Of a stretch of DNA of 64,000 nucleotides, positions 14,995 through 30,803 are shown piece by piece; within the stretch, counting starts at the first letter, position 1; each line of letters opens with the position of its first letter. The notes beneath the pieces are model-generated. The model was not told where the DNA came from, did not search any database, and worked only from the letters and a program-made list of their open reading frames with translations. The translations under genes were made by a program, and so were the position numbers. Origin of the DNA: an uncultured Thiothrix sp. (GTDB lineage: Bacteria; Pseudomonadota; Gammaproteobacteria; Thiotrichales; Thiotrichaceae); NCBI GenBank assembly GCA_964420315.1, contig CAYQTB010000001.1, positions 24,310-88,309 on the forward strand, written 5' to 3'.

Positions 14995-16092
14995 ATGCAA
15001 ATCACTGTCGCTCTCGACCAAGGCACACTCAACCTGACCATCGAATCCGGCACGCATTCGCCGGATGAGCTCTTCGGCTTTGCGCAACGCCGCAACCCGA
15101 AACGCGCTTTCCTGTTTGTCTCCAACGTGTTGGGCAGGCACATTCCGGTATCGCCAGCGGTTATGCGCAACGCCACCGATACCCTTGCGGCGCAGATCCC
15201 TGCTGACTTGCCGGGACCGGTCGTGGTTATCGGCATGGCAGAAACTGCGATTGCGTTAGGTGCTGGGGTGCAACAAGCCCTCAGCCGTAACCGTGACGAC
15301 ACGCTGTACCTGTGCACCACGCGCCACCCGTTGGACTTGCCGATCTTGGTCGAATTCCGCGAAGAACATAGTCACGCCACCCAACAAGTGCTACACCTGC
15401 CGCAACACGCCGCCGATGTTGAATTGCTACGCACGGCACGTACTTTAGTGTTGGTGGATGACGAAGCATCCACCGGCAAAACCTTCGCCAATTTGTTGGA
15501 AGCCTTGCAACGCGTCGGACTGGATCAGTTTGAACGCATCGTTGCCGCGACCCTCACCGATTGGTCAGGCGGTGCTGCCGCCTCACGGTTGGGTGAACGT
15601 GCCACTGCGGTTTCACTGCTGGCTGGGCATTGGGATTGGCAAGCCAACGACGCGCCCCCGCCGGAAATGCCGCAAGTCGATGTATTGGGCACTGGCGAAT
15701 GGTGCGCCAACCCCGCGAATGATTGGGGACGGTTGGGCGTGCGGGAACATCGCGTAAGAAGAACCTCACCCCCCGCCTCCGGCGAACGCATCCTCGTCCT
15801 TGGTACGGGCGAATTCGTCTGGCCGCCGTTTTTGCTCGCGGAATACCTGGAACAGCAAGGCGCAACCGTGCATTTCAGCGCCACCACCCGTTCGCCGATT
15901 GCCCTAGGTCACAGCATCCAGCACCGCTATTGCTTGCACGACAATTACGGGCAAGGTATCCCTAACTTCCTCTACAACGTCGTGCCTGAAAATTACGACC
16001 GCATTCTATTGTGCTGCGAACCACCCGCGCATTTGCTGGATAAAACACTGATCACCGCCTTAAACCCCACCTGTGTGGAGTTTTACCCGTGA
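14995..16092 (+). CDS. phosphoribosyltransferase-domain protein with C-terminal TRSP domain (Ter-linked)
   Basis: PRPP-binding loop LVLVDDEASTGKTF; C-terminal literal TRSP motif (HFSATTRSPIALG). GTGA overlap with the next gene at 16089-16092. Confidence 0.75.
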   Translation: MQITVALDQGTLNLTIESGTHSPDELFGFAQRRNPKRAFLFVSNVLGRHIPVSPAVMRNATDTLAAQIPADLPGPVVVIGMAETAIALGAGVQQALSRNRDDTLYLCTTRHPLDLPILVEFREEHSHATQQVLHLPQHAADVELLRTARTLVLVDDEASTGKTFANLLEALQRVGLDQFERIVAATLTDWSGGAAASRLGERATAVSLLAGHWDWQANDAPPPEMPQVDVLGTGEWCANPANDWGRLGVREHRVRRTSPPASGERILVLGTGEFVWPPFLLAEYLEQQGATVHFSATTRSPIALGHSIQHRYCLHDNYGQGIPNFLYNVVPENYDRILLCCEPPAHLLDKTLITALNPTCVEFYP

Positions 16093-16823
16093 AGCCCTTA
16101 TTACTCACCGATTTGGATGACACGCTGTTCCAGACGGCGCGAAAGATGCCAGTGGATGCGGATAAAATCCCCGCAGCGCAAGGCAAAACCAGTGACAGCG
16201 GGAGCTTTATGTACCCTTGGCAACACGATTTCATCCACTGGGCGTTGGGTTGTATGACCGTGATTCCAGTGACGGCGCGGGGAATTGAGTCCTTCAGGCG
16301 TGTTCATCTGCCTTTTAAGCACGGCGCGGTGTGTGTGCACGGTGCTGCGCTTCTCACTCCCGACGGTCAGGTGGATGCAGCTTGGCATTCGCACATCCAG
16401 CCGCAACTGGCCGCCTATCAGGAACGCTTACCAGAAATGTTGGCAACCGCGCTGCAAATCGGTGAAACGCTGGGGTTATCTTTACGTGGCTGGCTGGAAT
16501 CGGTAGAAGACACCGCAGCGTATCTGGTGATCAAAAGCAATACCGCCAGCACCGCAGACCTCCAGCAACTGCTGCACAGCTTACGTGACACCCTTAACTT
16601 GCAAGGCTTCTACACCCACATGAATGGCAACAACCTCGCCCTGCTGCCCGATTTCGTCAATAAACGTGCCGCAGCGGCAGAAATATTGCGGCGGCATACG
16701 GCTGAACACGGGCGTACCCCGGTATTCGGTATGGGTGATAGCGTGTCGGATTTAGGCTTCATGCGCTTGTGTGATTTCGCCGCGTTTCCGCCCAACACGC
16801 AAATTTGCAGGCAATTACCATGA
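16089..16823 (+). CDS. HAD-superfamily hydrolase (Ter-linked)
   Basis: N-terminal HAD motif I LLLTDLDDTLF; VIPVTARG (motif II); GMGDSVSDL (motif IV). Confidence 0.75.
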   Translation: MKPLLLTDLDDTLFQTARKMPVDADKIPAAQGKTSDSGSFMYPWQHDFIHWALGCMTVIPVTARGIESFRRVHLPFKHGAVCVHGAALLTPDGQVDAAWHSHIQPQLAAYQERLPEMLATALQIGETLGLSLRGWLESVEDTAAYLVIKSNTASTADLQQLLHSLRDTLNLQGFYTHMNGNNLALLPDFVNKRAAAAEILRRHTAEHGRTPVFGMGDSVSDLGFMRLCDFAAFPPNTQICRQLP

Positions 16824-17893
16824 GCGCAACCCACGGTTTTCACGGCTCGTATGCTGCCAGCGATGTCACGTTTTTGTTGCGGCAAATCGTGATGGAAACC
16901 ACGCCAGTAGAGGAAAAAGAACGCCTGATTCAAAGCGGACAACGCCATTACTCCGAAATGCTGACGCTGGAATCGCCGCCTTCCGCCGCGCATCAAGCAT
17001 TGTTCGAGCAAGCACTGGATGATGGGCTGGAACGCCTTGCCTGCGAGGTGCAAGCCTTGGCACTGGCCTTGCAGCACCGTCGCCCGAATCGCCCGATGGT
17101 GCTGGTGAGTTTCGTGCGGGCAGGTGTACCGTTGGGTGTATTGCTGCAACGTGCCTTGCGCGAATTGGGGGTGGAAAGTGCGCATTACGGCATCAGCATT
17201 GTGCGGGATAAGGGCATCGACCAAGCAGCGGTGGACTGGATTGAGCAACGCCATGCGTTCGCTGACATTGTGTGGGTGGATGGCTGGGTCGGCAAAGGGG
17301 CGATTCACGGCGAATTGCAACGCTCGTTAGGCAAGCGTTACCCTGATAGCGAGATTCCTTTGGTGGTGTTGGCTGACCCGACCGGCAAAGCATGGCTGGC
17401 AGCATCCGGCGAAGATTGGTTGATTCCGTTTGGCATTTTAGGCTCGACCGTTTCCGGCTTGGTGTCACGCTCGATTTTACGCGAGGATGGCGGCTGGCAC
17501 GCGTGCGTCAATTACGCGCATTTGGCGGCACACGATGTTAGCCAGTGGTTTGTCGATACCGTGGATGCTTGCCGCCGCTCTCAGCAAGGGGTTACGACGG
17601 TAGATTGGGCAGATGCGTTACGCCATACGCTGCTGGCACAATCACAAGCCACCCTTGCGCAACTGGTTGAAACTTATGATATTACCAACCTTAACCGCTT
17701 GAAACCGGGGATTGCGGAAGCCACCCGGGCAGTCATGCGGCGCGTGCCAGAACACATTCTGGTGCAGCGTCTCGATGACCCGAATACCCGCTTATTACGC
17801 CATCTTGCCGATTCGCGGGGCATTCCCCTGCAAGCGGTTGGGGATGGGCTTGCGCCATACCGTGCGATAACCATCATCAAGAAGACCACATGA
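16820..17893 (+). CDS. StiP-like protein (PELOTA-like N-domain plus PRTase-like domain; Ter-linked)
   Basis: N-terminus HGSYAASDVTFLL and the central motif VWVDGWVGKGAI match what I recall of the StiP family annotated in ter islands. The ATG at 16820 forms an ATGA overlap with the HAD stop. Confidence 0.65.
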   Translation: MSATHGFHGSYAASDVTFLLRQIVMETTPVEEKERLIQSGQRHYSEMLTLESPPSAAHQALFEQALDDGLERLACEVQALALALQHRRPNRPMVLVSFVRAGVPLGVLLQRALRELGVESAHYGISIVRDKGIDQAAVDWIEQRHAFADIVWVDGWVGKGAIHGELQRSLGKRYPDSEIPLVVLADPTGKAWLAASGEDWLIPFGILGSTVSGLVSRSILREDGGWHACVNYAHLAAHDVSQWFVDTVDACRRSQQGVTTVDWADALRHTLLAQSQATLAQLVETYDITNLNRLKPGIAEATRAVMRRVPEHILVQRLDDPNTRLLRHLADSRGIPLQAVGDGLAPYRAITIIKKTT

Positions 17894-18843
17894 CCACACG
17901 CATTTCCCCTTATCAGTTAGGCGCAACCTTGTACATGCCAGCAACACGCCCCGATTTGCTGGAGGTGATTTTACGGCAAAAAATCCCTGACCTACGTTCG
18001 ATGGTGATTTGCCTCGAAGACGCGGTGCGTGAGGATGAAGTCGCCACCAGCTTAAGTAATCTGCAACACTGTTTGCGCGAACTGCGCGGGCAAGAACGCG
18101 GCGTACCGCTGGTGTTTATTCGCCCTCGCCACCCGCAAATGGCGCATCAATTATTGACGATGCAAGGCATTGAGTGTATTGACGGTTTTGTACTGCCCAA
18201 GTTTGATAACCAGTCGTTTGCGGCGTGGTATGCGGTGGTGCAAGCCGCCCCCACACACTTGCTGTTTATGCCCACGCTGGAAACGGCGCAAGTATTGGAT
18301 GCGCTGGCCGTGCGCGAATTGTGTGAACGCTTGCAAGATAGCGGGATTAAATCACGCATATTGGCGTTGCGGATTGGTGGTAACGATTTGCTGTCGTGCT
18401 TGCGCTTGCGGACGCACCATGCGCATACCTTGTACGATGGCCCGTTGGGGTATGTGGTGGCGATGCTGGTGACGCATTTTGTTCCAGCAGGTTTTCATCT
18501 GACTGCGCCCGTGTTTGAATATTTTCAGGATCACACTATCTTGCAAGCCGAATTTCAGCGCGATTTGCTGCACGGCTTGGTGGGTAAAACCGTGATTCAC
18601 CCCAGCCAGATTGCGGTGATCCATCAAGCATTGAAAGTGGATAGCCGGGATTACGAAGCGGCGTTGCGGATTCTGGATGATGCCATGCCTGCGGTGTTCC
18701 AATTTGAAGGGGCGATGTGCGAACCGGCAACGCATCACCATTGGGCGGTGCAGGTGATGGAACGTGCCAAGCATTTTGGCTGCCATTTGCACGCGGTGGC
18801 GGTGGATGAGGGGATGGAGAAAGAGTGTGCGGCATTGTATTAG
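17890..18843 (+). CDS. HpcH/HpaI aldolase / citrate lyase beta (CitE)-like C-C lyase (Ter-linked)
   Basis: 317 aa; LYMPATRPD, ICLEDAV, RIGGNDL and VIHPSQI are CitE-like TIM-barrel motifs. ATGA overlap at 17890-17893. Confidence 0.8.
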   Translation: MTTRISPYQLGATLYMPATRPDLLEVILRQKIPDLRSMVICLEDAVREDEVATSLSNLQHCLRELRGQERGVPLVFIRPRHPQMAHQLLTMQGIECIDGFVLPKFDNQSFAAWYAVVQAAPTHLLFMPTLETAQVLDALAVRELCERLQDSGIKSRILALRIGGNDLLSCLRLRTHHAHTLYDGPLGYVVAMLVTHFVPAGFHLTAPVFEYFQDHTILQAEFQRDLLHGLVGKTVIHPSQIAVIHQALKVDSRDYEAALRILDDAMPAVFQFEGAMCEPATHHHWAVQVMERAKHFGCHLHAVAVDEGMEKECAALY

Positions 18844-18951
18844 AGCTGCCATCGTCAATATGCATAGCGATTAAGCGTAGGTTCGGTTGATACATCATGA
18901 AAATTTTTCGGTTACAATCGCCATTATTATTGTGTAACCTGATGTTGCCTC

Positions 18952-21900
18952 ATGCCTGTTAACAAAACCGCTGATACCCGACCTGCTGAATCCCTCGATT
19001 TGACTGCGCCAGTAGCACCGCCTACGCCACCTAAGCAGCAAGGTCTCAACTTGCCGGGTAAAGCCGCTGCCAAACCTGCGGTCAAGCCTGCCGCCAGCGA
19101 TGAAACCCCGATCATTTCCTACCGCCACGGCGAAACCCGCAAAAACAACCCCGAAGTGGGCATGGTCAACGATGCCAATGACCCCGCACAGCCCCAGACT
19201 GAATGGGCGCATAATCCGCACCTTGCCCCCGAATTGCAGTTTGATTCCAGCCGGGCGGCGGTGGAGCAATTGATTGATGGGGCGCTGGCGAGTGGTGATG
19301 CGGCGGTGATGCGCGAGGCGTTGGCGGAATTGAAGCGGATGCAGTCGCCGTTTTTGAATTGGGCGGGGAAGGCGGAACGTACCAGCTTTGCGGTGGATAC
19401 GGTGAGCTTGCATGTGCATGAGCGGATTGACCCGTTGAGTATTTTGTCGGCGTTGCAGAAGGGGATGAAGAAGAACCCCCCATCCCCAGCCCTTCCCCCG
19501 CAAGGGGTGAAGGGAGCGAAGAGGGCGGGTTCGTTTCAGTTGGGGTTGTTTAATGCGCCGTTTGAGAATTTGCCGTTGCGGGATGCGGTGGATTTTTACC
19601 ATCACGATAAGGGGTGGTCGAATCGTTTGGTGGCGGGGGATTCGTTGCTGGTGATGAATTCCTTGTTACAGAAGGAAAGCATGGCGGGGCAGGTGCAGAT
19701 GATCTACCTTGATCCGCCGTATGGGATTAAGTATGGCTCGAATTTCCAGCCGTTTGTGAACAAGCGCGATGTCAAAGACCGCAAGGATGAGGATTTGACG
19801 CAAGAGCCGGAAATGATCAAGGCGTTTCGGGATACGTGGGAACTGGGCATCCACTCGTATTTGACCTACTTGCGTGACCGCTTGCTGTTGGCACGCGACC
19901 TGCTTGCTGACAGCGGCTCAATCTTCGTCCAAATCTCCGACGAAAACTTGCACCACGTCCGCGAACTCCTCGACGAAATTTTCGGTGTCGAAAACTTTGT
20001 CGCCATTGTTACTGTTACAAAAACAACAGGAGCAGGTAGTCCAGAAATAGGTACGACAACTATTGCTTCAATTTGTGATTATATTGTTTGGTATTCAAAG
20101 AAAAAAATAGATATGAAATATAATCAGCTATTTAAGGCGAAGGTCGCAGGTGACGAAGGTGGTTCTCGATACAAATTAATGAATCAGCATGACGGTCGTT
20201 ATGCAACCACATCAGATATAAGATCGCAAAGCGGTGGAGAAACAACTTCTTTTCCAATCAATTTTTGTGGAAGAGTTTTTAAGCCGTCACCAATGTTTTG
20301 GAAAACGAATTTATCAGGATCAAATAGCCTTAAGCTATCTGGACGATTAGTTATCGAAGGCAATACTCTCAGGTTTTTGCGATTTTTAGATGATTTTCCT
20401 GTTTCACCGCTGAATAATATTTGGACAGATGTTGGTGGCATACAGAGTCGCACTGATTCTAAAATTTATGTCGTTCAAAGTGCGGTAAAATTGATTGAGC
20501 GGTGTATGTTGATGACGACGGAGCCGGGGGATTTGGTGTTTGACCCGACGTGCGGCAGCGGCACAACTGCTTTCGTGGCGGAGAAGTGGGGGCGACGCTG
20601 GATTACCTGCGATACCTCACGGGTAGCCGTAACGCTGGCAAAACAACGTTTGATGACCGCCAGCTTTGACTACTTCGACCTCAAATACCCGCAAGAAGGC
20701 TTGAAAGGCGGCTTTATCTACAAAACCGTCCCGCACGTCACGCTCAAATCCATCGCCAATAATCCCGAAATCGACATGATTTACGAGAAGATGCACCCGG
20801 CGGTGGAGCAAGCATTGGCGGAGTTGAATGCTGCGCTTGCCCTCACCCTAATCCTCCCCCGCAAGGGGGGCGGGAACAAGAACCTCTCCGAAACACCTTC
20901 TTCGCTCCCTTCACCCCTTGCGGGGGAAGGGTTGGGGATGGGGGGGATTGCCGAATGGGATGTGCCGTTCGCTTTTCCCGCCGATTGGCCAGAAGCCGCA
21001 CGCGCCCCATTCGAGGCATTCCACACCGCCCGCCAAGCCATGCAACGCCGCATGGACGACAGCATCGCCGCCAACGCCGGACAAGAAACCCTCTACGACC
21101 AGCCACAAATCGCCAAAGACAAACTGCGCATCACCGGCCCGTTTTCACTCGAAGCCGTGCCATTCCCCACCGTGCTATCCCTCAACGACGCGGCACAACC
21201 CGCCCAAGCCGACAACAGCATCGCCCGCAGCGGTGAAACCTCCCGCCAAACCCAATGGCGCGATGAGTTGATGAAAACCGGCATCCGTGGCAAAAACAAA
21301 CAGATGCTCAAATTCGCCGAACTCGAAACCCTGCCCGGCACGCGCTACCTGCACAGCGGCGGCACTCTCGACACCGGTGAGCGCGTGGTGGTCAGCTTCG
21401 GCCCTGAACACGCCGCCCTCGAACAACGCCAAGTCGAAAACGCCCTGCGCGAAGCCGGTGAGTTGTTCCCGCTGCCGAAAATGATCGTGTTCTGCGCCTT
21501 CACCTTCGACCCCGAAGCCGCCAAGGACATCGACGCGACCAAAGGCATCACTGCCCTGAAAGCGCAAATGAACACCGACCTGCTCACCGAAGACCTGAAA
21601 AAACAACGCGCCAACAACCAAAGTTTCTGGCTGATGGGGCAACCCGACGTGGAAGTGCGCAAACGCAAAGACGGTCTTTACGAAGTCGAAGTCCACGGTT
21701 TCGACTACTTCGACACCACCAAGGGCGAGTTGCAATCCGGCGGCAAAAACCGCATCGCCGTGTGGTCGCTGGATACGGATTACGACAACCGTTCCCTGTT
21801 CCCTGCACAAGTTTTCTTCCCGATGGCTGGCAAACAAGACGGCTGGTATAAACTCAAGAAAGACATCCGTGCTGAACTCGACGAAACGCGGCTGGATGCG

Positions 21901-22011
21901 TTCCACGGCACAGTTTCCTTGCCGTTTGTCGCAGGCGACCACAAGCGCATTGCCGTCAAAATCGTGGATGACCGTGGGATAGAATCGCTGAAAGTGATGG
22001 AGTTGGAGTAA
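18952..22011 (+). CDS. mod: site-specific DNA methyltransferase, beta-class N6/N4 (type III Mod-like), 1019 aa
   Basis: Motif IV IYLDPPYG (DPPY codons 19711-19722) precedes motif I FDPTCGSGTT (about 20539-20568). This is the beta permutation, with the TRD between the two motifs. The C-terminal tail ..RIAVKIVDDRGIE is typical of this long Mod family. Confidence 0.9.
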   Translation: MPVNKTADTRPAESLDLTAPVAPPTPPKQQGLNLPGKAAAKPAVKPAASDETPIISYRHGETRKNNPEVGMVNDANDPAQPQTEWAHNPHLAPELQFDSSRAAVEQLIDGALASGDAAVMREALAELKRMQSPFLNWAGKAERTSFAVDTVSLHVHERIDPLSILSALQKGMKKNPPSPALPPQGVKGAKRAGSFQLGLFNAPFENLPLRDAVDFYHHDKGWSNRLVAGDSLLVMNSLLQKESMAGQVQMIYLDPPYGIKYGSNFQPFVNKRDVKDRKDEDLTQEPEMIKAFRDTWELGIHSYLTYLRDRLLLARDLLADSGSIFVQISDENLHHVRELLDEIFGVENFVAIVTVTKTTGAGSPEIGTTTIASICDYIVWYSKKKIDMKYNQLFKAKVAGDEGGSRYKLMNQHDGRYATTSDIRSQSGGETTSFPINFCGRVFKPSPMFWKTNLSGSNSLKLSGRLVIEGNTLRFLRFLDDFPVSPLNNIWTDVGGIQSRTDSKIYVVQSAVKLIERCMLMTTEPGDLVFDPTCGSGTTAFVAEKWGRRWITCDTSRVAVTLAKQRLMTASFDYFDLKYPQEGLKGGFIYKTVPHVTLKSIANNPEIDMIYEKMHPAVEQALAELNAALALTLILPRKGGGNKNLSETPSSLPSPLAGEGLGMGGIAEWDVPFAFPADWPEAARAPFEAFHTARQAMQRRMDDSIAANAGQETLYDQPQIAKDKLRITGPFSLEAVPFPTVLSLNDAAQPAQADNSIARSGETSRQTQWRDELMKTGIRGKNKQMLKFAELETLPGTRYLHSGGTLDTGERVVVSFGPEHAALEQRQVENALREAGELFPLPKMIVFCAFTFDPEAAKDIDATKGITALKAQMNTDLLTEDLKKQRANNQSFWLMGQPDVEVRKRKDGLYEVEVHGFDYFDTTKGELQSGGKNRIAVWSLDTDYDNRSLFPAQVFFPMAGKQDGWYKLKKDIRAELDETRLDAFHGTVSLPFVAGDHKRIAVKIVDDRGIESLKVMELE
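19476..19523. repeat. GC-rich palindromic (REP/MITE-like) unit inserted in frame within mod
   Basis: Sequence: ccccccatccccagcccttcccccgcaaggggtgaagggagcgaagag. It holds an internal hairpin (cccttcccc-gcaa-ggggtgaaggg) and translates as NPPSPALPPQGVKGAKR. Its reverse complement matches 20900-20945. Confidence 0.8.
20000..20510 (+). other. low-GC segment of mod corresponding to the target recognition domain
   Basis: Hand counts give 40/120 GC (20041-20160) and 45/120 GC (20161-20280), against 68/120 in a res sample (24001-24120). The segment lies between the DPPY and FxGxG motifs. Confidence 0.7.
20838..20946. repeat. composite GC-rich palindromic repeat (two hairpin modules) inserted in frame within mod
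   Basis: Module 1 is tcctcccccgcaaggggggcggga (about 20853-20876). Module 2 (20900-20945) matches the reverse complement of 19476-19521 at 45 of 46 positions (hand alignment). It translates as LILPRKGGGNKNLSETPSSLPSPLAGEGLGMGG. Confidence 0.8.
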
Positions 22012-22015
22012 GTAA

Positions 22016-23167
22016 ATGTTCATAACCCGTATCAAACTGAAAAACTGGAAAAACTTTCGGGAGGTGGATGTTCCGCTGTTTCCGCAAACCTACCTGATCG
22101 GCCCGAATGCCTCCGGCAAATCCAACTTTCTGGACGTGTTCCGTTTTTTGCGTGACGTAGCAAAACCTTCGGGTGGTGGCCTGCAAAAAGCCGTAGAAGA
22201 CCGGGGGGGCATCGGCAAATTACGCTGCCTGCACGCCCGCAAGGATACCGAAGTCAAAATTGAAATTGATCTGGCTTTGTCGCTGGATGCAGAACCTGTC
22301 TGGAAATATGTATTGGGTTTTAAAGCCGAAGGTGTAGGTCGCCAACGTACCCAAGTCACTCAGGAATTGGTTATCAAAGATGGCAAGGTTATCCTTAGCC
22401 GCCCAGACCATGATGATGGCAGTGACCGTGAACGTCTGACCCAAACCTACTTGGAGCAAATCAGTTCCAATAAGGCATTCCGTGAGATCGTGGAGTTTTT
22501 TGCTGTCACTACTTACTTGCATATCGTGCCGCAACTGTTGAAATATGGCGACAAAATTGGCGGCAACCCGTTGGAAGAAGACCCATTGGGGCAGAAGTTT
22601 CTGGAGAGGATAGCCGATACCACCGAAAGGACACGCAAGGCACGGCTGGATAAAATTGAAGAGGCACTGAAAGTTGCTGTCCCCCGTTTTGAGGCGATCC
22701 GCTTCGTACGTGACGAGAAAAATGGTCATCCACATCTGGAAGCCTTATACGGACATCATCGCCCCAATGCAGGTTGGCAACGTGAAGACCAGTTTTCTGA
22801 CGGTACACTACGCCTGTTGGGGTTGTTGTGGATGTTGATGGAAGGTGACTCGCTACTCCTGATGGAAGAACCAGAACTGTCACTTAACAATGCCATTGTC
22901 GAACGTATCCCCGAACTGATTTACCGCATCCAGCGCAAGACCAAGTACAAGCGGCAAGTATTGATCAGCACCCACAGCGCAGCCCTGCTCAGTAATCCGG
23001 GCATCGACAGCCGCGCAGTGTTGATGTTGGAACCGGGTTCAGAGGGAACGCACATCCGCCCACCCAATACAGAAGAGTTGACCACGGTTAATGCTGGTTT
23101 TTCTGCTGCTGAAGTGTTGCTACCCAAAATAAGACCACAAAATATTGAGCAACTGGGACTATTCTGA
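22016..23167 (+). CDS. ABC-type (AAA_15/AAA_21-like) ATPase, OLD/AbiL/PARIS-like ATPase component
   Basis: 383 aa; N-terminus FITRIKLKNWKNF; Walker A GPNASGKSNFLD; signature-like FSDGTLRLLGL; Walker B LLLMEEPELSL; H-loop ISTHS. Confidence 0.8.
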   Translation: MFITRIKLKNWKNFREVDVPLFPQTYLIGPNASGKSNFLDVFRFLRDVAKPSGGGLQKAVEDRGGIGKLRCLHARKDTEVKIEIDLALSLDAEPVWKYVLGFKAEGVGRQRTQVTQELVIKDGKVILSRPDHDDGSDRERLTQTYLEQISSNKAFREIVEFFAVTTYLHIVPQLLKYGDKIGGNPLEEDPLGQKFLERIADTTERTRKARLDKIEEALKVAVPRFEAIRFVRDEKNGHPHLEALYGHHRPNAGWQREDQFSDGTLRLLGLLWMLMEGDSLLLMEEPELSLNNAIVERIPELIYRIQRKTKYKRQVLISTHSAALLSNPGIDSRAVLMLEPGSEGTHIRPPNTEELTTVNAGFSAAEVLLPKIRPQNIEQLGLF

Positions 23168-23766
23168 TGATCCATATTTGTCTGGCAACAGAGGATGCCC
23201 TGTCGGCAGCGGTGGCTGAAAAACTGCTGGCAGTTTCAGGCAAACCCTTCCAGATCACTCAGCGGCTGGGTAACAGCGGGTTTGGCTACCTGAAAAAACG
23301 GTTGCCTAATTTCAACCAAATAGCTGTCAATGTCATGCCGGTTTTGCTGCTGACAGACCTTGACAGGACGGATTGTGTCTTAGGTTTCATTGAAGATTGG
23401 ACAAAGGGGATGTCTGTATCAGAACGCCTGCTATTCCGTGTTGTGGTGCGTGAAATTGAAGCATGGTTGTTGGCAGACCAACAAGCCTTTGCGGACTTGT
23501 TGGGAATTGATTCAACCCTGTTACCCAATGAACCAGAAAATCTCCTAGACCCCAAACAGGCATTGCTGAATTTGGTCAGGCGCTCCAAGCAACGCAAGCT
23601 GAAAGACATGATCCTACCCGGAAAAAACACCAACAATACAGTTGGTCTAGGCTACAACACTGAGCTTGTTCGCTATGTGAGGGAATACTGGAATCCACTT
23701 ACCGCAGCCGAGTCTGCTCCAAGCCTTGCGCGTACTTTGAAAAGAATTAATGAGCTTGCTTCATGA
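23167..23766 (+). CDS. small Toprim-like protein (DUF4276-like), putative nuclease partner of the ATPase
   Basis: 199 aa. Strand-Glu start IHICLATEDALS, acidic DxD-type motif LLLTDLDRTDC, then REIEAWLLAD. This layout resembles Toprim/DUF4276. 1-nt overlap (TGATG) with the ATPase gene. Family call from memory only. Confidence 0.5.
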   Translation: MIHICLATEDALSAAVAEKLLAVSGKPFQITQRLGNSGFGYLKKRLPNFNQIAVNVMPVLLLTDLDRTDCVLGFIEDWTKGMSVSERLLFRVVVREIEAWLLADQQAFADLLGIDSTLLPNEPENLLDPKQALLNLVRRSKQRKLKDMILPGKNTNNTVGLGYNTELVRYVREYWNPLTAAESAPSLARTLKRINELAS

Positions 23767-26576
23767 CCGCCCCCCAATCCCTGATCATCAACAGCCCCTA
23801 CGCCTGCCCGCAACGGCATTGGCGCAAGGCAACGCAAAACAGTTCCACTACGCCCAAATTAGAGCAGGTAGTCGGTCGCCGCCCCGCCAGTTACGAAATC
23901 TTTGACACCCGCAACAACACCAGCCGCGAAGTCGAATTGCCGCTGGTTAACCAAATCCGTGAACGGGTGGACGCATGGCGCACCGCAGGCTACCCCGGCA
24001 TCAGCTCCATCACCCGCAGCTTGCTGGAGCATTGGCATGACAGCACTGCCCGCGATTACCCATTCTATTTCTGCCAACTGGAAGCCATCGAAACCCTGAT
24101 CTGGTGGGTGGAAGCCCTGCCTGATTACAAGCAAGGCATTGCGATTGAAGGCGACGGCGGTGCGTGGGAACGTTTGTGCAGCAAAATGGCGACAGGTACA
24201 GGCAAAACTACCGTGATGGCGATGCTGATTACCTGGCAGGTACTCAACGCTCTTGCATTTCCTAAGCGTCACAAGGAATTTTCCAGCACTATCCTGATCA
24301 TTGCACCGGGTTTGACCGTCAAGGAACGCTTGCAGGTATTGCAGCCGGGGGCAGCCGCCAACTATTACGATGCGTTCAGCCTTTGCCCCAACGCCTCACT
24401 ACGCCACAAACTCAACCAGATGGAACTGTTGATTGAGAACTGGCACACCTTAATGCCGTTAACAGAACCGGAACGTTCGGTACAGAAAAAAGGTGCAGAA
24501 AACGATGAAGCCTTTACCCGTCGGGTATTGGGCAAGCTGGCAAACAAGCGCGGTCTGCTGGTGATCAACGACGAAGCCCACCACGCTTACCGCAAACCCG
24601 CTGAACTCAAGATCAGCAAGGCACAAGCCGCCGAACAGGGCATTGATCTGGATGAAGCGACCCGCTGGATTGAGGGGCTAGACCGCATCCACAAAACCCG
24701 CCGCATTGCCCGCTGTTTTGACCTGTCCGCTACCCCGTTTGCGCCCACGGGTAAGCGCAACACCGAGTCGGCACTGTTCCCGTGGGTCATTTCTGATTTT
24801 GGCTTGTACGATGCGATTGAAGCCGGGCTGGTGAAAACCCCGCGTGTGGTGGTGCGCGATGATGCGTTACCGAATGCCAAAACCTACCGCCCCAAGCTCT
24901 ACCACTTATATGCCGAAGCCGATGTCGCCGAGGATTTGAACCGCAAAGGCGCACAAGCCACCGAACCCTTGCCGGAATTGGTGCAAACCGCCTACACCTT
25001 GCTGGGGGCGGATTGGCGTGCCGCATTACACCGTTGGCAAGCGGCAGGGCACACTTCACCGCCCGTCATGTTGACAGTATGCAACCGCACCGAAACCGCC
25101 GCGCGGGTGGAGCATTATTTTCGGGCAGGTGATGCGCATTGGGCAGAATTGCAAGCCCCCGAACGCACCTTGCGCGTCGATTCCAGAGTGCTGGAGAAAG
25201 CCGAAGTGGGGGAAACCGCAACGGCTGACAAAGGCTACGAAGCCCAGCTTCAGGCCATTATCCACGCTGCCAATATCCCCGTGACCCGCAAACAGGAACT
25301 GCAAGCCCTGAAGAAAGAGGAGTTGCTGCGCGAGATCATTGATAACGTCGGCAAACGCGGCACGGCTGGGCAGGATTTGCAAAACGTGATTTCCGTTGCG
25401 ATGCTCTCGGAAGGTTGGGATGCCAAAAACGTCACCCACATCATGGGTTTACGCGCCTTTTCCAGCCAATTGTTGTGTGAGCAGGTAATCGGGCGCGGTT
25501 TGCGGCGCGTGTCCTACGACCGGGACGAAAACGGCCTGTTCATCCCCGAATACGTGAACGTGTTTGGTGTGCCGCTGTCCATTTTTCAGGATGTGGGGGA
25601 TGGTGGCGAACCACCCCCGCCGCCCAAACCCAGCACCCAGATCAAATCACTGCCAGAACGCCACGCGCTGGCAATCCGCTGGCCTAATGTGTTGCGTATT
25701 GACACCGTAGTCTGCCCGGAATTGCATATCGACTGGTCACAGGTAGAAACACTCACGCTTGACCCGGCATTAACGCCAGTTTCCGCTGATCTAGCACCGG
25801 CCTTGGGGGGCGCAACGGCACTGGATCAGGTACACGGCATCGACCTTGCGTTATTGCCAGAAGGTTTCCGCCTGCAACGGCTGGTGTTCCGTGCTGCCCA
25901 AAAAGCCTTCGACCAATTACAGGCCGCTTTTAAAGGCAACCGTGAATACCTGTTGCTGCAACTGATTCGTTTGGTGGAGCAATTTATTGGTTCTGAGGTG
26001 CTGCGCATCCCGTCCGATTACCACCAAGAACCGTTACGCAAACGCATTCTGATTGGGTTGAATATCGACATCATCGTCCAGCACCTGTTGCGCTTTGTGA
26101 CCGAACAGAACAGCGAACGGCTGGAGCCGGTTTTTGATACGGATAAGCCGCAATCCTCCACTGCCGATATGCCCGTCTGGTACAGCACCAAGCCCTGTTT
26201 TGAAACCACTAAGTCGCCCATTTCCCATGTCGTCGATGACAGTACGTGGGAGCATTACGTCGCGGGTGTGCTGGAAAAATCGGAATTGGTACGCAGCTAT
26301 GCCAAGAACGATCACTTGGGCTTTCAGGTGTTGTACCTGTGGCGCGGTTCCAAACGGCGTTATGTGCCCGATTTCCTGATCCGTTTGGCAAACGGTAAAA
26401 CACTGGTGCTGGAAATCAAGGGCAAACACTCTGAACAGGCCACCGCCAAACGTGCTGCGCTGGATACATGGGTAGCCGCCATCAACAGCAGCGGCGGCTT
26501 TGGGGAATGGTGTGCCGCTGTGATTTTCGAGCCTGCTAAGATTTACGACACGCTGGCACAGCACGGGGAAGCCTAA
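23763..26576 (+). CDS. res: type III restriction enzyme Res subunit (SF2 helicase plus PD-(D/E)XK nuclease)
   Basis: 937 aa; Walker A KMATGTGKTT; DEAH box VINDEAHHAY; motif VI QVIGRGLRR; C-terminal nuclease motif YVPDFLIRL..LVLEIKG. ATGA overlap at 23763-23766. Confidence 0.9.
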   Translation: MTAPQSLIINSPYACPQRHWRKATQNSSTTPKLEQVVGRRPASYEIFDTRNNTSREVELPLVNQIRERVDAWRTAGYPGISSITRSLLEHWHDSTARDYPFYFCQLEAIETLIWWVEALPDYKQGIAIEGDGGAWERLCSKMATGTGKTTVMAMLITWQVLNALAFPKRHKEFSSTILIIAPGLTVKERLQVLQPGAAANYYDAFSLCPNASLRHKLNQMELLIENWHTLMPLTEPERSVQKKGAENDEAFTRRVLGKLANKRGLLVINDEAHHAYRKPAELKISKAQAAEQGIDLDEATRWIEGLDRIHKTRRIARCFDLSATPFAPTGKRNTESALFPWVISDFGLYDAIEAGLVKTPRVVVRDDALPNAKTYRPKLYHLYAEADVAEDLNRKGAQATEPLPELVQTAYTLLGADWRAALHRWQAAGHTSPPVMLTVCNRTETAARVEHYFRAGDAHWAELQAPERTLRVDSRVLEKAEVGETATADKGYEAQLQAIIHAANIPVTRKQELQALKKEELLREIIDNVGKRGTAGQDLQNVISVAMLSEGWDAKNVTHIMGLRAFSSQLLCEQVIGRGLRRVSYDRDENGLFIPEYVNVFGVPLSIFQDVGDGGEPPPPPKPSTQIKSLPERHALAIRWPNVLRIDTVVCPELHIDWSQVETLTLDPALTPVSADLAPALGGATALDQVHGIDLALLPEGFRLQRLVFRAAQKAFDQLQAAFKGNREYLLLQLIRLVEQFIGSEVLRIPSDYHQEPLRKRILIGLNIDIIVQHLLRFVTEQNSERLEPVFDTDKPQSSTADMPVWYSTKPCFETTKSPISHVVDDSTWEHYVAGVLEKSELVRSYAKNDHLGFQVLYLWRGSKRRYVPDFLIRLANGKTLVLEIKGKHSEQATAKRAALDTWVAAINSSGGFGEWCAAVIFEPAKIYDTLAQHGEA

Positions 26577-26579
26577 ATC

Positions 26580-29500
26580 ATGCAAACACTCCATGCCCAA
26601 AGCGTTCCCCTCGTTGGCACAAATCTGATCGAAGCCAGCGCAGGCACGGGTAAAACTTGGACGATTTCATGGCTCTACCTGCGCCTAATCGCCGTCTACG
26701 GTCTCAAAGTCGACAAAATTCTGGTTGTCACCTACACCGAAGCTGCCACCGCCGAATTACGTGACCGCATCCGCAAACGCCTTGCCGATGCCTTAGCGTA
26801 TTTGGAAGGACGTCCACACGCGGAAACTTACGAATCATTACCCCTCGAAGCGCCAATTCACGACTGCATCCAACGCCTGCAACTGGCATTGGTCAGTTTC
26901 GACGAAGCGGCAGTTTTCACCATTCACGGTTTCTGCAAGCGTGTGTTATCCGAAAACGCCTTTGAAGCGCGGATGCCGTTTGAAACCGAGTTGGTGACAA
27001 ATGAAGACAATCTGCTCACCGAATTGACCGACAAATTTTGGTATCAGCACTTTCTCAAACCCGATGCGCTGCATTTGCGCTTGTTGCAAAAACGCGGGCT
27101 GACCCCGGATGGTTTGCTGGCAACCGTGCGCCATTTCATTGGTAAACCCTATTTGCACGCCGAGATTCTGCCTGTCACCACCGAGGCATTTGCGCAACGG
27201 CAAAGCGTTTTTGACGCTGCTTTGCAAGCTTGCCAGCAAAGTTGGGCGAGTGAACGTGAGGTGATTATCGGTTTATTGCTGGGGGACGCACTCAACGGCA
27301 GCACCTACAGCAAGCGCTATGTGCCGAATTGGGCGGGCAAACTCGATGCGTATTTCGCCACCCCGCTGGAATTGCCCATTGAGATTGCTGAGCGCTTTAC
27401 GACGACTGCGCTGACCGAGAAAACCAAGCCCGGTAAGGTGACGCCGCAACACGCTTTTTTCACGCAAGTGGATAACTTACTCGCCGCCCATGATGCGCTC
27501 TCTGAAGGTGAACAAGCTGCACTGGAATACTTGCGCCTGCAATTGCTGCACCAGTTACGCGCCGAATTACCGGTGCGTAAACAGCAACTCGGCATTCTCA
27601 CCTTTGATGATTTGCTGCTGCATTTGCGGGATGCCTTGGCACAGCACCCCGATTTCCCGCCGCGTTTGGCGCTGAAATACCAAGCAGCGCTGATTGATGA
27701 GTTTCAGGACACTGACCCGATTCAGTATGAAATTTTCGAGCGCATCTACCACGATAAACCCGAACAGCCGGTGTTTTACGTGGGCGACCCCAAACAAGCG
27801 ATTTACGGGTTTCGAGGGGCGGATATTTACACCTACCTCAAAGCCGCGCACAGCACCTCAGCGCATTACACGCTGCAACACAACTTTCGTTCACACCCTG
27901 ATTTGCTGCAAGCGCTTAACCACCTGTTCGCGCAATCTGATCAGCCGTTCCGCAGCGACATCCGCTACGAAGCGGTCAGCGCCGGTAAACCGCAGGCAGA
28001 TTTACGCATCGAGCCACCGCTTCCTCCCATCCGCCTCTGGGATTGGAACGCTCTTGACGAAGGCTACAACAGCGCTGCCGTGCAAGAATGCATTGCCGAA
28101 GCCGTTGCCAATGACATTGCCCGCTTATTAAACGCCGGTCGCGAAGGTATTGCCCTGATTGGTGAACGCCCCGTAGAAAGCCGTGACATTGCGGTACTGG
28201 TGCGCGAAAACCAACAGGGCGAACAAATCAAACGTGCTTTGCTGGCACGCGGCATTGCCAGCGTCCAAAAATCGCGAGACAGCATTTTTTGTACCCGCGA
28301 AGCCAGCGATTTCCGTGCAGTATTGCGAGCAATTGCCGAACCGGGCAATGAAGCGGCGCTTAAACAAGCCCTTGTCACCGAACTGTTTGGTTTCACGGCT
28401 CAGGATTTGTTTGCGCTGGATGAGAACCCGCAGCGATTGGAAGCCGAACTCGAAGCGTTTCACCGTTGGCATAAAACTTGGCATTCGCAAGGCTTTATGC
28501 CGATGTTTCGCCAGTGGCTGTTACAACGCCAACGCTACGCGTACTTATTAGCCTTGGTGGATGGCGAACGTCGCCTCACCAATTTGTTACATCTGGCGGA
28601 ACTGATCCATACCGAAAGCCGCTTGCAAGGGCATGGGATGCACGCGCTGATTCGCTGGTTGCAGCAAAAAGCCGAAGCGGGTGAACAAGACGAAGCACAC
28701 GAACTGCGTTTGGAAAGCGATGAGAACTTGGTACAAATTACCACCATCCACAAAAGCAAGGGGCTGGAATACGGCATTGTGTATTGCCCGTATTTGTGGG
28801 CAGAACGTGATGCCAAAGCCGGGGCGTGGTTCAGTTGGTATGACCGTGAGTCAGATGCGGGCATTTCGCGCCTGCAAGCTGAAGCGTTTGCTAGTGATGC
28901 GGCGCTTAAGTGTTTTCGCGAAGCCGAACAAGCGGAAAGTTTGCGTTTGCTGTACGTCGCGCTCACCCGTGCCAAATACCATTGCACCATTGCACTGGTC
29001 AGCGGGCGCATTAATAAATTCGACTACTATTCGGCACTCGGTTGGCTGCTATTCGGCAAGTTACCGCAGGGCAGAGAGATTCTCGGCAAATTGCGCAAAG
29101 ACGGGATGCAACCCGACGAACGCCAACGTTTGATGCACACGCAATTAACCCACTTGGTGGAACAGTCCGCTGGCGGTATCAGCCATGAAGTGTTGCCGGT
29201 TGAAGAAACACCTGTGCGTTACCAAGCAGACAGCGGGCAATGGCAACCCAGCATCCGCCGTTACCAGCCACGTTATGCGCCGGTTCCCAAAGTCGGCAGT
29301 TTCAGCGGTTTGGCATCAGGCAAGGAAGATGAACGCCCGGACTATGACACGCTGGTTGTTACCTCGGTCGCTGAGCGAAGTCGCAGCGATGCATTTCCAC
29401 GCGGTGCAACAGCCGGCAGTTGCTTGCACAAAATGCTGGAGGAACTCGACTTCACCCAAGCACTTGCCACCCAACACGAGAGCGTATTGCTACCGGCATT

Positions 29501-30107
29501 GAAACGCCACGGCTTGCCCGAACGCTGGCTACCCGCTGGTGTGCAACTGCTGGAAAATGCTCTCAATACGCCGTTGCCTGCCGTTAATTTGCGTTTGTGC
29601 GACCTTTCCAAAACACAACGCCTTGACGAACTCGAATTTTATTTCCCAGTAGAGCGCTTGCGTCTGAAACCGTTGCAAACCTTGTTGCACCAGCACTTGC
29701 CCACCGAATGGGAAGCCATTCACACCGCTATCGATAAGCTGAAGTTCAATGACTTAACCGGTTATATGAAAGGCTACATTGATTTGGTGTTTACGGCTGA
29801 TGGGCAGTATTTTGTGGTGGATTACAAGTCGAATGATCTGGGCGCAACGCCTGCCGATTATGGTTTTGAGGCGATGCAAGAGGCGATGGCGGAACACCAT
29901 TACTACCTGCAATACCTGATCTATTGTTTAGCCTTGCATCGCTATTTGCAGCAGCGCTTGCCGGGGTATGCTTGGGAACGGCATATGGGGGGGGCTTTGT
30001 ATTTATTTTTGCGTGGCATGGTACCGGAACAAGCAGGTTCCGGCGTATTCTTTCATAAGCCAACGTTTACTTTGATTGAGGCGTTGGAGCACGCAATGGG
30101 TCAGTAA
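26580..30107 (+). CDS. recB: RecB-family helicase-nuclease (exodeoxyribonuclease V beta-like), 1175 aa
   Basis: LIEASAGTGKTWTI, LIDEFQDTDPIQ, VGDPKQAIYGFRGADI, TIHKSKGLEY and the nuclease motif GYIDLVF..VVDYKSN..QYLIYCLALHRYL. The ATG lies 3 nt after the res stop. Confidence 0.85.
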   Translation: MQTLHAQSVPLVGTNLIEASAGTGKTWTISWLYLRLIAVYGLKVDKILVVTYTEAATAELRDRIRKRLADALAYLEGRPHAETYESLPLEAPIHDCIQRLQLALVSFDEAAVFTIHGFCKRVLSENAFEARMPFETELVTNEDNLLTELTDKFWYQHFLKPDALHLRLLQKRGLTPDGLLATVRHFIGKPYLHAEILPVTTEAFAQRQSVFDAALQACQQSWASEREVIIGLLLGDALNGSTYSKRYVPNWAGKLDAYFATPLELPIEIAERFTTTALTEKTKPGKVTPQHAFFTQVDNLLAAHDALSEGEQAALEYLRLQLLHQLRAELPVRKQQLGILTFDDLLLHLRDALAQHPDFPPRLALKYQAALIDEFQDTDPIQYEIFERIYHDKPEQPVFYVGDPKQAIYGFRGADIYTYLKAAHSTSAHYTLQHNFRSHPDLLQALNHLFAQSDQPFRSDIRYEAVSAGKPQADLRIEPPLPPIRLWDWNALDEGYNSAAVQECIAEAVANDIARLLNAGREGIALIGERPVESRDIAVLVRENQQGEQIKRALLARGIASVQKSRDSIFCTREASDFRAVLRAIAEPGNEAALKQALVTELFGFTAQDLFALDENPQRLEAELEAFHRWHKTWHSQGFMPMFRQWLLQRQRYAYLLALVDGERRLTNLLHLAELIHTESRLQGHGMHALIRWLQQKAEAGEQDEAHELRLESDENLVQITTIHKSKGLEYGIVYCPYLWAERDAKAGAWFSWYDRESDAGISRLQAEAFASDAALKCFREAEQAESLRLLYVALTRAKYHCTIALVSGRINKFDYYSALGWLLFGKLPQGREILGKLRKDGMQPDERQRLMHTQLTHLVEQSAGGISHEVLPVEETPVRYQADSGQWQPSIRRYQPRYAPVPKVGSFSGLASGKEDERPDYDTLVVTSVAERSRSDAFPRGATAGSCLHKMLEELDFTQALATQHESVLLPALKRHGLPERWLPAGVQLLENALNTPLPAVNLRLCDLSKTQRLDELEFYFPVERLRLKPLQTLLHQHLPTEWEAIHTAIDKLKFNDLTGYMKGYIDLVFTADGQYFVVDYKSNDLGATPADYGFEAMQEAMAEHHYYLQYLIYCLALHRYLQQRLPGYAWERHMGGALYLFLRGMVPEQAGSGVFFHKPTFTLIEALEHAMGQ

Positions 30108-30803
30108 TCAATGGGGTAAATCACGGGCGTATTCGAGCAAGACCGTTTCCAAGCGTGCAAAGGCTTCGGGTTTGGGGCTAGACCCCGGAAAACTTTGGTA
30201 GATCAGTTGTTTTTCTTTGCCGTCCAGCATGATGTCAAGGGTTTGGCGGTAATGGCGTTGCCCCGCTTTCGCACCACCAAAAGTATCGCGTTTGAGGGTG
30301 AGTGCGCCACTTTCTTTGATCACGGCATACAGATTGTCGAGATCTTCGGGGCGCAAGGCGAGGCTGATGGTTTTGAGATCCTCCTCTTGCCAGCAAGGGG
30401 TGCTTTTTACCCATTGGGCGCAACGCCCGGCGGTATCTTCAAAATAGGTGTAGCTGAGGATGCCGTTTGCCAGTGTGATTTCGGTGTAGAAGCTTTCACC
30501 TGTAGCGAGAAAGCGTAGCGAGAACTCGTTGCCCGGTAGCGTTTGCTGGGCAAGGTTAGGGATTTTCAGGGTATTGGATTTTTCGGGAGGCGTGGGCATG
30601 GTTTCCGGCTCCGGTGTAACGATGGCAGTGGCATCAGCAGGTTGCAGTCGGTCAGCGTCGGGGATAATGACGGGTTCTGCTATTGATTCGACGGGGGGAG
30701 CAGGCGGTGGCGGGGCTGGTTCACGTTGTTCACAGCCACTCAAGGGCAGCAATGTTAGCCAGAGCAGGTAGTAAGCAGAGGGGATGACGTTAGCTTGTTT
30801 CAT
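30108..30803 (-). CDS. hypothetical lipoprotein with Pro-rich linker
   Basis: Lipobox LLPLSGC; linker PAPPPPAPP..TPEPETMPTPPE; no family recognised. Its start lies 14 nt after the suhB stop. Its stop codon directly abuts the recB stop. Confidence 0.6.
   Translation of the reverse strand: MKQANVIPSAYYLLWLTLLPLSGCEQREPAPPPPAPPVESIAEPVIIPDADRLQPADATAIVTPEPETMPTPPEKSNTLKIPNLAQQTLPGNEFSLRFLATGESFYTEITLANGILSYTYFEDTAGRCAQWVKSTPCWQEEDLKTISLALRPEDLDNLYAVIKESGALTLKRDTFGGAKAGQRHYRQTLDIMLDGKEKQLIYQSFPGSSPKPEAFARLETVLLEYARDLPH

Follow-up and report, generated by a model that had tools for sequence, protein, structure and literature searches.

A HEC-01 candidate defence pair in an exchangeable slot between the mod and res genes of a Type III-like restriction-modification operon of Thiothrix

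Pairs of an ABC-type ATPase and a Toprim nuclease recur in antiviral defence: AbiL and MADS3-4 have joined OLD, Gabija and PARIS in this group, and the mechanism of PARIS has been described (PMC11464382), while the DUF4276 and RloB families have been placed in the Toprim superfamily (PMC12065111). HEC-01 (Hma-embedded candidate 01) was defined in 2024 as an ABC ATPase plus a TOPRIM protein with a conserved metal site (bioRxiv 10.1101/2024.01.29.577857). Here we describe a two-gene cassette in a 64,000-nucleotide (nt) stretch of an uncultured Thiothrix sp. genome (contig CAYQTB010000001.1 of assembly GCA_964420315.1, positions 24,310 to 88,309 of the forward strand; hereafter the window). The cassette encodes proteins of 383 and 199 amino acids (aa) and lies between the methyltransferase (mod) and restriction endonuclease (res) genes of a restriction-modification (R-M) operon. 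The pair is a new member of the catalogued HEC-01 candidate family and is neither PARIS nor the founder of a new family. We consider it likely to be a candidate anti-phage system that occupies an exchangeable mod-res slot and works on its own. The five open reading frames (ORFs) of the locus are co-oriented and closely packed, and together with the cassette they are as follows.

18952..22011, + strand: mod (1019 aa), Type III-like N6/N4 DNA methyltransferase, host gene upstream of the slot
22010..23761, + strand: exchangeable cassette, not homologous to the corresponding DNA of sister Thiothrix genomes
22016..23167, + strand: HEC-01A, ABC-type ATPase, 383 aa, 43.5 kDa, presumed sensor or regulator
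23167..23766, + strand: HEC-01B (199 aa, 22.3 kDa), Toprim-like protein of DUF4276, presumed to be the nuclease effector
23763..26576, + strand: res (937 aa), restriction endonuclease of the BPTD_3080 family, host gene downstream of the slot
26580..30107, + strand: recB, genomic context (TIGR00609, 928 bits)

Both proteins match hidden Markov models of HEC-01 over their full length, with gene A directly preceding gene B on the same strand. HEC-01A matches the PADLOC model PDLC04180 at 2.6e-150 (498.8 bits; residues 1-382 on profile positions 1-380 of 382), and HEC-01B matches PDLC04194 at 6.7e-58 (residues 2-198 on profile positions 4-198 of 204) and PDLC04193 at 3e-54. The Pfam AAA_21 domain is found in HEC-01A at 3.7e-38, and the PADLOC models of related ATPases, namely AriA (4.8e-35), AbiLi, mad3, Old and GajA, all score far below the HEC-01A model. 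The combination that defines the family, an ABC-ATPase with a Toprim-like partner and a predicted metal site, is recovered in the structural models and in the invariant residues E9, D64, D66 and E98 of HEC-01B. Like HEC-01 pairs described before, the Thiothrix pair consists of an ABC ATPase followed on the same strand by a small Toprim-like protein and is embedded in a DNA-modification-based defence operon. Unlike the hosts surveyed so far (Hma, BREX, DISARM and Type I systems), the host operon is a Type III-like BPTD_3080 Mod/Res system, in which HEC-01 is swapped in an allele-like manner with PD-T4-4 and PDC-M56 between sister species. In another subtype of PADLOC-DB, the names of the two models seem to have been exchanged: PDLC04144 (labelled HEC-01B, 395 positions) matches a 398-aa ATPase at 4e-204, whereas PDLC04143 (labelled HEC-01A, 190 positions) recognizes the small protein of 187 aa at 3e-75.

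Comparison with other described systems reveals likeness and difference in each case. The Toprim catalytic region of OLD proteins (P2 Old; OLD of B. pseudomallei, 6NK8) is the best fold match of HEC-01B, but in OLD and GajA the ATPase and the Toprim domain are fused in a single polypeptide, whereas in Thiothrix they are encoded by two ORFs separated by a stop codon. Mad3/Mad4 of MADS, AbiL (AbiLi/AbiLii) and RloA/RloB likewise pair an AAA_21-type ATPase with a DUF4276 (Mad4) or RloB partner (PMC12065111, PMC11464382). Nevertheless, HEC-01A reaches only 82.1 bits against the NCBIfam MADS3 model NF047739 (cut-off 420), the PADLOC scan of HEC-01B gave no match to the mad4 or AbiLii models, and no further MADS genes accompany the pair, its neighbours being only mod, res and recB. 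PrrC, found in the Type I R-M operon EcoprrI, also is an ABC-ATPase-based nuclease system residing inside an R-M operon; however, PrrC is a single protein that is nearly always R-M-embedded (bioRxiv 10.1101/2024.01.29.577857), whereas the relatives of the HEC-01 pair mostly stand alone.

The 383-aa protein is an ABC-type ATPase, as judged from domain matches and its predicted structure. Across an alignment of 44 ATPase homologues, the following motifs are conserved.

22100..22135, + strand: Walker A/P-loop GPNASGKSNFLD, aa 29-40; G29, N31, A32, G34, K35 and S36 invariant
22793..22807, + strand: ABC signature-like FSDGT, aa 260-264; F260, S261, D262 and G263 invariant
22853..22876, + strand: Walker B LLLMEEPE, aa 280-287, followed by the D-loop SL; L281, L282, E285, P286, S289 and L290 invariant
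22967..22978, + strand: H-loop STHS, aa 318-321; S318, H320 and S321 invariant

The N-terminus yields SMC/RecF-like matches and also matches GajA and OLD sequences. In a Foldseek search of the PDB with the AlphaFold2 model (predicted local distance difference test score, pLDDT, 81.9), the nearest solved folds were PtuA (from Septu and retron effectors) and SMC heads, with E values of ~1e-13 and template modelling (TM) scores of ~0.5-0.58.

The AlphaFold2 model of HEC-01B was obtained at high confidence (pLDDT 94.2, predicted TM score 0.90) and has the order beta-alpha-beta-alpha-beta-alpha-beta, with the N-terminal four strands alternating with helices. Conservation was assessed in an alignment of 46 small-protein homologues, with 3 acidic motifs standing out.

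23176..23196, + strand: strand beta1 and conserved Glu, ICLATED, aa 4-10; E9 and D10 invariant, at the end of the strand spanning residues 2-7
23350..23373, + strand: DxD motif LTDLDRTD, aa 62-69; D64, L65 and D66 invariant, right after strand 3 (residues 59-64)
23452..23478, + strand: second acidic cluster EIEAWLLAD, aa 96-104; E98, W100 and D104 invariant and E96 nearly so, after strand 4 (residues 88-93)

In the model, the glutamate after strand 1, the DxD motif after strand 3 and the acidic residues after strand 4 follow the canonical Toprim layout, the first two being also the hallmark of the OLD-family fold, and the protein is thus predicted to carry a Glu/DxD/Glu metal-binding set. The top 5 Foldseek matches in the PDB are C-terminal Toprim regions of OLD proteins (6nk8, 6njw, 6njx and 6njv among them), with 6nk8 aligning at a probability of 1.0, TM scores of 0.47-0.51 and an E value of 2.5e-3; sequence identity to the OLD matches is only 14-18%, and the best viral fold match (Foldseek, BFVD) is an RloB-like protein. 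A precomputed PF14103 match is present in about half of the small-protein homologues listed. An earlier reading of the locus from its sequence only (hereafter the sequence-only reading) had picked out most of these motifs and proposed an ATPase followed by a Toprim-like protein. All the motifs quoted there are present and fall on family-invariant positions, the broad architecture shared with OLD, PARIS, AbiL and MADS3-4 is borne out by domain and fold matches, and the Toprim fold suggested for the 199-aa protein agrees with the structure prediction, in which OLD Toprim regions rank best and the acidic residues are invariant.

The junction between mod and res is where the locus differs from those of its closest relatives. 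Complete genomes of Thiothrix with Res at least 90% identical at the amino acid level (T. winogradskyi and T. subterranea) carry the operon at the same chromosomal place (res-recB-...-suhB), and DNA identity with the sister loci is 87-94% across the conserved parts of mod, res and recB. Homology detected by blastn to the loci of T. winogradskyi (L083), T. subterranea (L084) and a further Thiothrix (L085) ends at 22007-22009 and restarts at 23762. The junctions are very sharp: mod is identical in the sister loci up to the last one or two codons before its stop, and the last gene of every cassette ends on the TGA within the res start ATGAcc. In place of HEC-01, the slot of T. subterranea holds a 479 + 210 aa pair identified as PD-T4-4 (2.1e-100 and 1.7e-22), and that of T. 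winogradskyi and of another metagenome-assembled genome holds a 402/386 + 162 aa pair identified as PDC-M56 (3.1e-119 and 1.6e-33), whereas other contigs contain PD-T4-4-like pairs or two tandem ATPase pairs; in the tandem arrangement, seen in Joint Genome Institute (JGI) metagenome contigs (L087-L090), two different ATPase plus small-protein pairs (465 + 174 and 385 + 162 aa) fill the slot. The HEC-01 cassette is therefore foreign and swappable.

To see the slot beyond Thiothrix, metagenomes were scanned by Res alignment, which yielded 72 R-M loci with both gene ends placeable. In 44 of these (61%), mod and res abut (-3 to +110 nt), and since so many slots are empty, the R-M system needs no occupant. 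The remaining 28 loci (39%) contain an insert: 5 HEC-01 pairs of the subtype found in the window, 2 pairs of a second HEC-01 subtype, 6 PDC-M56-like pairs, PDC-M30/M41, PDC-M24-like and PDC-S23/S05 cassettes (PDC-S23 being RhuM-like), a 623-aa pAgo/SIR2-like gene and unclassified ones. Because the occupants vary from locus to locus, the mod-res junction emerges as an exchange hot spot for defence and candidate-defence cassettes.

Base composition points in the same direction, if less forcefully. The pair has a GC content of 49.3%, compared with 53.9% in mod and 56.0% in res, and a third-position GC (GC3) of 0.51-0.54 compared with 0.63-0.65; its GC content lies at about the 10th percentile among equal-sized windows. 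The dip is real but modest, and a foreign origin is far better attested by the comparison of sister genomes. The sequence-only reading had suggested a cassette of different origin from the GC counts of 120-nt samples, taken at the 5' end of the cassette and in res; its count for the cassette was accurate (58/120 in 22016-22135), whereas the first 120 nt of res give 72/120 rather than 68, and the separate origin itself is upheld by the breaks of homology at the slot edges. It had also placed the pair between mod and res with overlapping stop and start codons, which is correct for HEC-01A and HEC-01B (1 nt, TGATG) and for HEC-01B and res (4 nt, ATGA), whereas mod and HEC-01A do not overlap, being separated by a 4-nt spacer (TAA GTAA ATG). 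The pair is thus packed for co-transcription and translational coupling with mod and res. Consensus scans for internal promoters and terminators found fewer sites in the cassette than in shuffled sequence, a result that bears neither way on autonomous expression.

A genome scan identified 80 loci encoding small proteins 37-71% identical to HEC-01B in many phyla, archaea included. In 79 of them the ATPase gene directly precedes that of the small protein, the sole exception being cut by a contig end, and the distance matrices of the two proteins co-vary (Mantel r = 0.73, a value reached by 0 of 999 permutations); HEC-01A and HEC-01B therefore travel and diverge as a unit. The same mod/res family flanks the pair in 8 of the 80 loci (L009, L010, L013, L021, L036, L043, L050 and L073), although in L009 the arrangement is different, with a res-like gene upstream of the pair. 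One further pair is embedded in Hma together with AbiD (L011), another in a DISARM-like system (L014), and a third is located beside a DUF1156 methylase (L007). Roughly 85% of the pairs most closely related to it lie outside any DNA-modification-based system, and their neighbours are mostly housekeeping genes (KARI, AlaRS, RecQ, HemN, ABC-F, glutamine synthetase and others), as surveyed with Pfam and PADLOC on the closest ORFs to either side of the pair at 73-74 loci, using crude longest-ORF calls that may include mis-calls. In a neighbor-joining tree, which carries no support values and is only indicative, the R-M-embedded pairs are scattered; a single clade of such pairs was not seen. The closest relative of the window pair (L003, ATPase 87% identical) is not embedded. 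Among 72,556 plasmid records, the ATPase was found on one Ralstonia megaplasmid. In L073, fragmented mod and res genes accompany an intact HEC-01 pair, and in L013 a second pair, of 398 + 188 aa, follows HEC-01.

If the pair acts as an independent defence system, its mode of action may be pictured by analogy with PARIS, OLD and Gabija. An oligomer of the ATPase would hold or control the Toprim nuclease and sense a phage-derived cue; ATP-dependent release or activation would then free the nuclease to cut host or phage nucleic acid, the target being possibly tRNA, as for AriB, or DNA, as for OLD and GajA, and the infected cell might then arrest its growth or undergo abortive infection. A place in the R-M operon could bring shared expression, co-transfer and layered defence without any mechanistic dependence.

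Several observations speak against such a role. The Toprim assignment of HEC-01B is a structural one with a marginal Foldseek match (E 2.5e-3, TM ~0.5): searches of all PDB sequences with the protein and with a 46-sequence profile returned nothing meaningful, and because there is no solved relative by sequence, the call rests on the fold and the placement of the motifs. The Pfam DUF4276 match (residues 28-139) is borderline, passing at 30.5 bits against a cut-off of 30.2. The ATPase family was absent from the 50,697 phage records searched, unlike PARIS, which weakens a close PARIS analogy. Finally, the HEC-01 representative of Payne et al. was unprotective against their phage panel (bioRxiv 10.1101/2024.01.29.577857), whereas with another representative E. 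coli B gained protection from one or more of the phages T4, T5 and T7 (bioRxiv 10.1101/2024.09.26.614923); the defence activity of HEC-01 thus rests on one report, and the experimental data are thin and conflicting.

The most serious alternative, which elaborates the guard idea of the sequence-only reading, is that the pair guards the R-M system in the manner of PrrC in EcoprrI, being silenced by contact with Mod/Res and firing when an anti-restriction protein (Ocr, ArdA or Stp-like) disables the complex. Recurrence of the order mod-A-B-res across distantly related taxa (in 8 of the 80 loci from genomes and 5 of the 72 R-M loci from metagenomes), the tight coupling of the genes (4-nt spacer, 1-nt overlap and 4-nt overlap) and the fact that ABC-ATPase pairs fill most of the identifiable occupied slots of the BPTD_3080 R-M family would all fit such a role, for which PrrC and Ocr-triggered PARIS and Gabija provide precedents (bioRxiv 10.1101/2024.01.29.577857; PMC11464382). 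The distribution of the homologues, however, does not back it: with 8 of 80 pairs in BPTD_3080 R-M operons and about 3 more in or near Hma or DISARM-like systems, the remaining pairs mostly have housekeeping neighbours, the embedded pairs do not stay together in the tree and the nearest relative is free-standing. General enrichment of defence genes beside the homologues, which the sequence-only reading expected, is rejected in the 73-74 loci surveyed. On the side of the host, the slot is vacant in most R-M loci and is shared by unrelated cassettes (the RhuM-like PDC-S23 and the pAgo/SIR2-like gene), and intact cassettes outlast the decay of the R-M genes, as seen for HEC-01 in L073 and for PDC-M56 next to the deleted mod of T. 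winogradskyi. An obligate guard role is thus disfavoured and we regard this explanation as unlikely, although triggering of the pair by an anti-restriction protein is possible.

An addiction module is quite improbable. Here, the nuclease would be a toxin and the ATPase its antidote, stabilizing themselves and the R-M island like a toxin-antitoxin (TA) pair with no primary role against phages. The homologues do stand alone, are patchily distributed and move horizontally among housekeeping genes, AAA_21 is annotated in Pfam as a putative component of type IV TA systems, and one tested representative had no phage phenotype (bioRxiv 10.1101/2024.01.29.577857), but the other representative did protect (bioRxiv 10.1101/2024.09.26.614923). 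Furthermore, PD-T4-4, an occupant of the same slot, is listed by PADLOC among the named defence systems rather than the 'PDC' candidates. Addiction modules are usually plentiful on plasmids, whereas plasmid carriage of this family is nearly nil.

That the pair is PARIS, or a miniature version of it, is very improbable. The two systems share a split arrangement, with an ABC ATPase of the AAA_15/21 group and a Toprim-superfamily nuclease in a two-gene operon (PMC11464382), and control of the nuclease by a sensor ATPase is their likely common logic; the PADLOC AriA model does match HEC-01A, and the sequence of solved AriA is found at an E value of ~1e-3. Yet the AriA model is far weaker than that of HEC-01A and covers the same residues and profile span as Pfam AAA_21 (residues 27-326; positions 4-304 of 304), so that the match looks like one to the generic ATPase core, and the solved AriA sequence aligns to aa 251-325 only. 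The effector belongs to DUF4276 rather than to DUF4435, the family of AriB, with no match of HEC-01B to AriB (PADLOC) or DUF4435 (Pfam) at E <= 0.01, and the nearest solved folds of HEC-01A are PtuA and SMC, not AriA. In addition, the collections searched yielded no phage- or satellite-borne copy of the pair, and the proteins are smaller (43.5 and 22.3 kDa versus 55 kDa for AriA, which forms a hexameric propeller, and 35 kDa for AriB; PMC11464382). The suggestion in the earlier reading that the proteins are smaller than and distinct from AriA and AriB therefore stands, but the family is not an uncharacterized one in the sense proposed there, being catalogued in PADLOC as HEC-01. Hardly credible is a pair of accessory subunits of the restriction enzyme or a RecF/OLD-like DNA-repair factor tied to the downstream recB, which the packed gene string mod-A-B-res-recB and the SMC/RecF-like N-terminus of the ATPase might suggest, given that the slot holds no gene in 61% of related R-M loci, that its content is replaced by unrelated cassettes at 90% or more Res identity, that no recB homologue occurs near any of the 80 homologous pairs and that the adjacency of res and recB is a feature of Thiothrix synteny independent of the cassette.

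The pair itself enlarges by one member a family that is catalogued but mechanistically unstudied. The locus is a natural experiment, with near-identical R-M operons carrying HEC-01, PD-T4-4, PDC-M56, tandem pairs or nothing at one position, and could show whether ABC-ATPase/nuclease pairs that are embedded in this way depend on the R-M system or act by themselves, what sets them off and why the junction is a hot spot. What is new here is the host, a BPTD_3080 Type III-like system of a kind not covered in the survey of embedded pairs, and the clean polymorphism of the cassette between sister genomes of Thiothrix; embedded defence, an idea drawn from Hma, BREX, DISARM and Type I systems, thereby reaches a Type III-like R-M family. 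There is also a small chance that the BPTD_3080 mod-res junction is a dedicated plug-in site, the occupants of which are functionally wired to the restriction complex; HEC-01 and the other ABC-ATPase pairs would sense the integrity of Mod/Res, or DNA ends arising near RecB, and be set off by a phage that inhibits restriction. In that event, cassette swapping between Thiothrix strains would reflect an arms race with anti-restriction proteins, and Type III-like R-M systems would have a general second layer of the PrrC kind.

The host operon itself fits a Type III-like R-M system of the BPTD_3080 family. Mod contains the Pfam N6_N4_Mtase domain (1.2e-31) and matches the PADLOC model MTase_III PDLC03632 at 2.2e-164, and Res, which also has a Pfam ResIII match, scores 1136 bits against the NCBIfam equivalog NF046055 (cut-off 800); matches of Res to PADLOC models are few and weak, with zero to Hma models. 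A literature search found no paper mentioning BPTD_3080. The 90% clusters of Res and RecB include T. winogradskyi, T. subterranea, T. lacustris and Ca. T. sulfatifontis. The mod gene is 91-93% identical at the nucleotide level to other Thiothrix mod genes outside its middle part, which stands apart:

20026..20463, + strand: variable middle part of mod, GC 0.39-0.43, without nucleotide homology to sister mod genes

Bordered on either side by sequence 89-94% identical to the mod genes of T. subterranea (L084) and L085, to which it has itself no nucleotide homology, this segment is probably a swapped target-recognition region, which would confer a different methylation and restriction specificity. 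The mod gene also contains 2 copies, in opposite orientation, of a 50-nt GC-rich palindromic element resembling repetitive extragenic palindromes or miniature inverted-repeat transposable elements (REP/MITE-like; 19476-19525 and 20896-20945). The copies are in frame and 96% complementary, and translate to ...PSPALPPQGVKGAK... and ...SPLAGEGLGMGG...; the second (within 20835-20952) is missing in the mod genes of 3 other Thiothrix loci and thus looks like a recent in-frame insertion. In T. winogradskyi (L083 6883-8298; CP091244), mod is internally deleted to 471 aa and has no methylase domain match, while Res and the embedded PDC-M56 pair are intact.

Downstream, recB starts 3 nt past the res stop on the same strand (26574-26582) and hence is possibly co-transcribed with the R-M operon; it is context and not part of the system. 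The adjacency of res and recB is kept in several Thiothrix genomes (L083, L084, L085, L091 and L092) whatever cassette is embedded, with neither recC nor recD next to recB. In the metagenomic relative represented by L087-L090, a HemN-like gene follows res in place of recB. A 254-aa TauE-family gene between recB and the next gene in L083-L085 is missing in the window (30092-30112). Upstream, synteny with other Thiothrix genomes stops at 18854, 98 nt before the mod ATG. To the left of this break, 4 overlapping genes (365, 244, 362 and 317 aa) occupy 14995-18854, with no NCBIfam match except a weak HpcH/RipC-like one, and in their place other Thiothrix genomes carry Pribosyltran-PNP_UDP-CptA.

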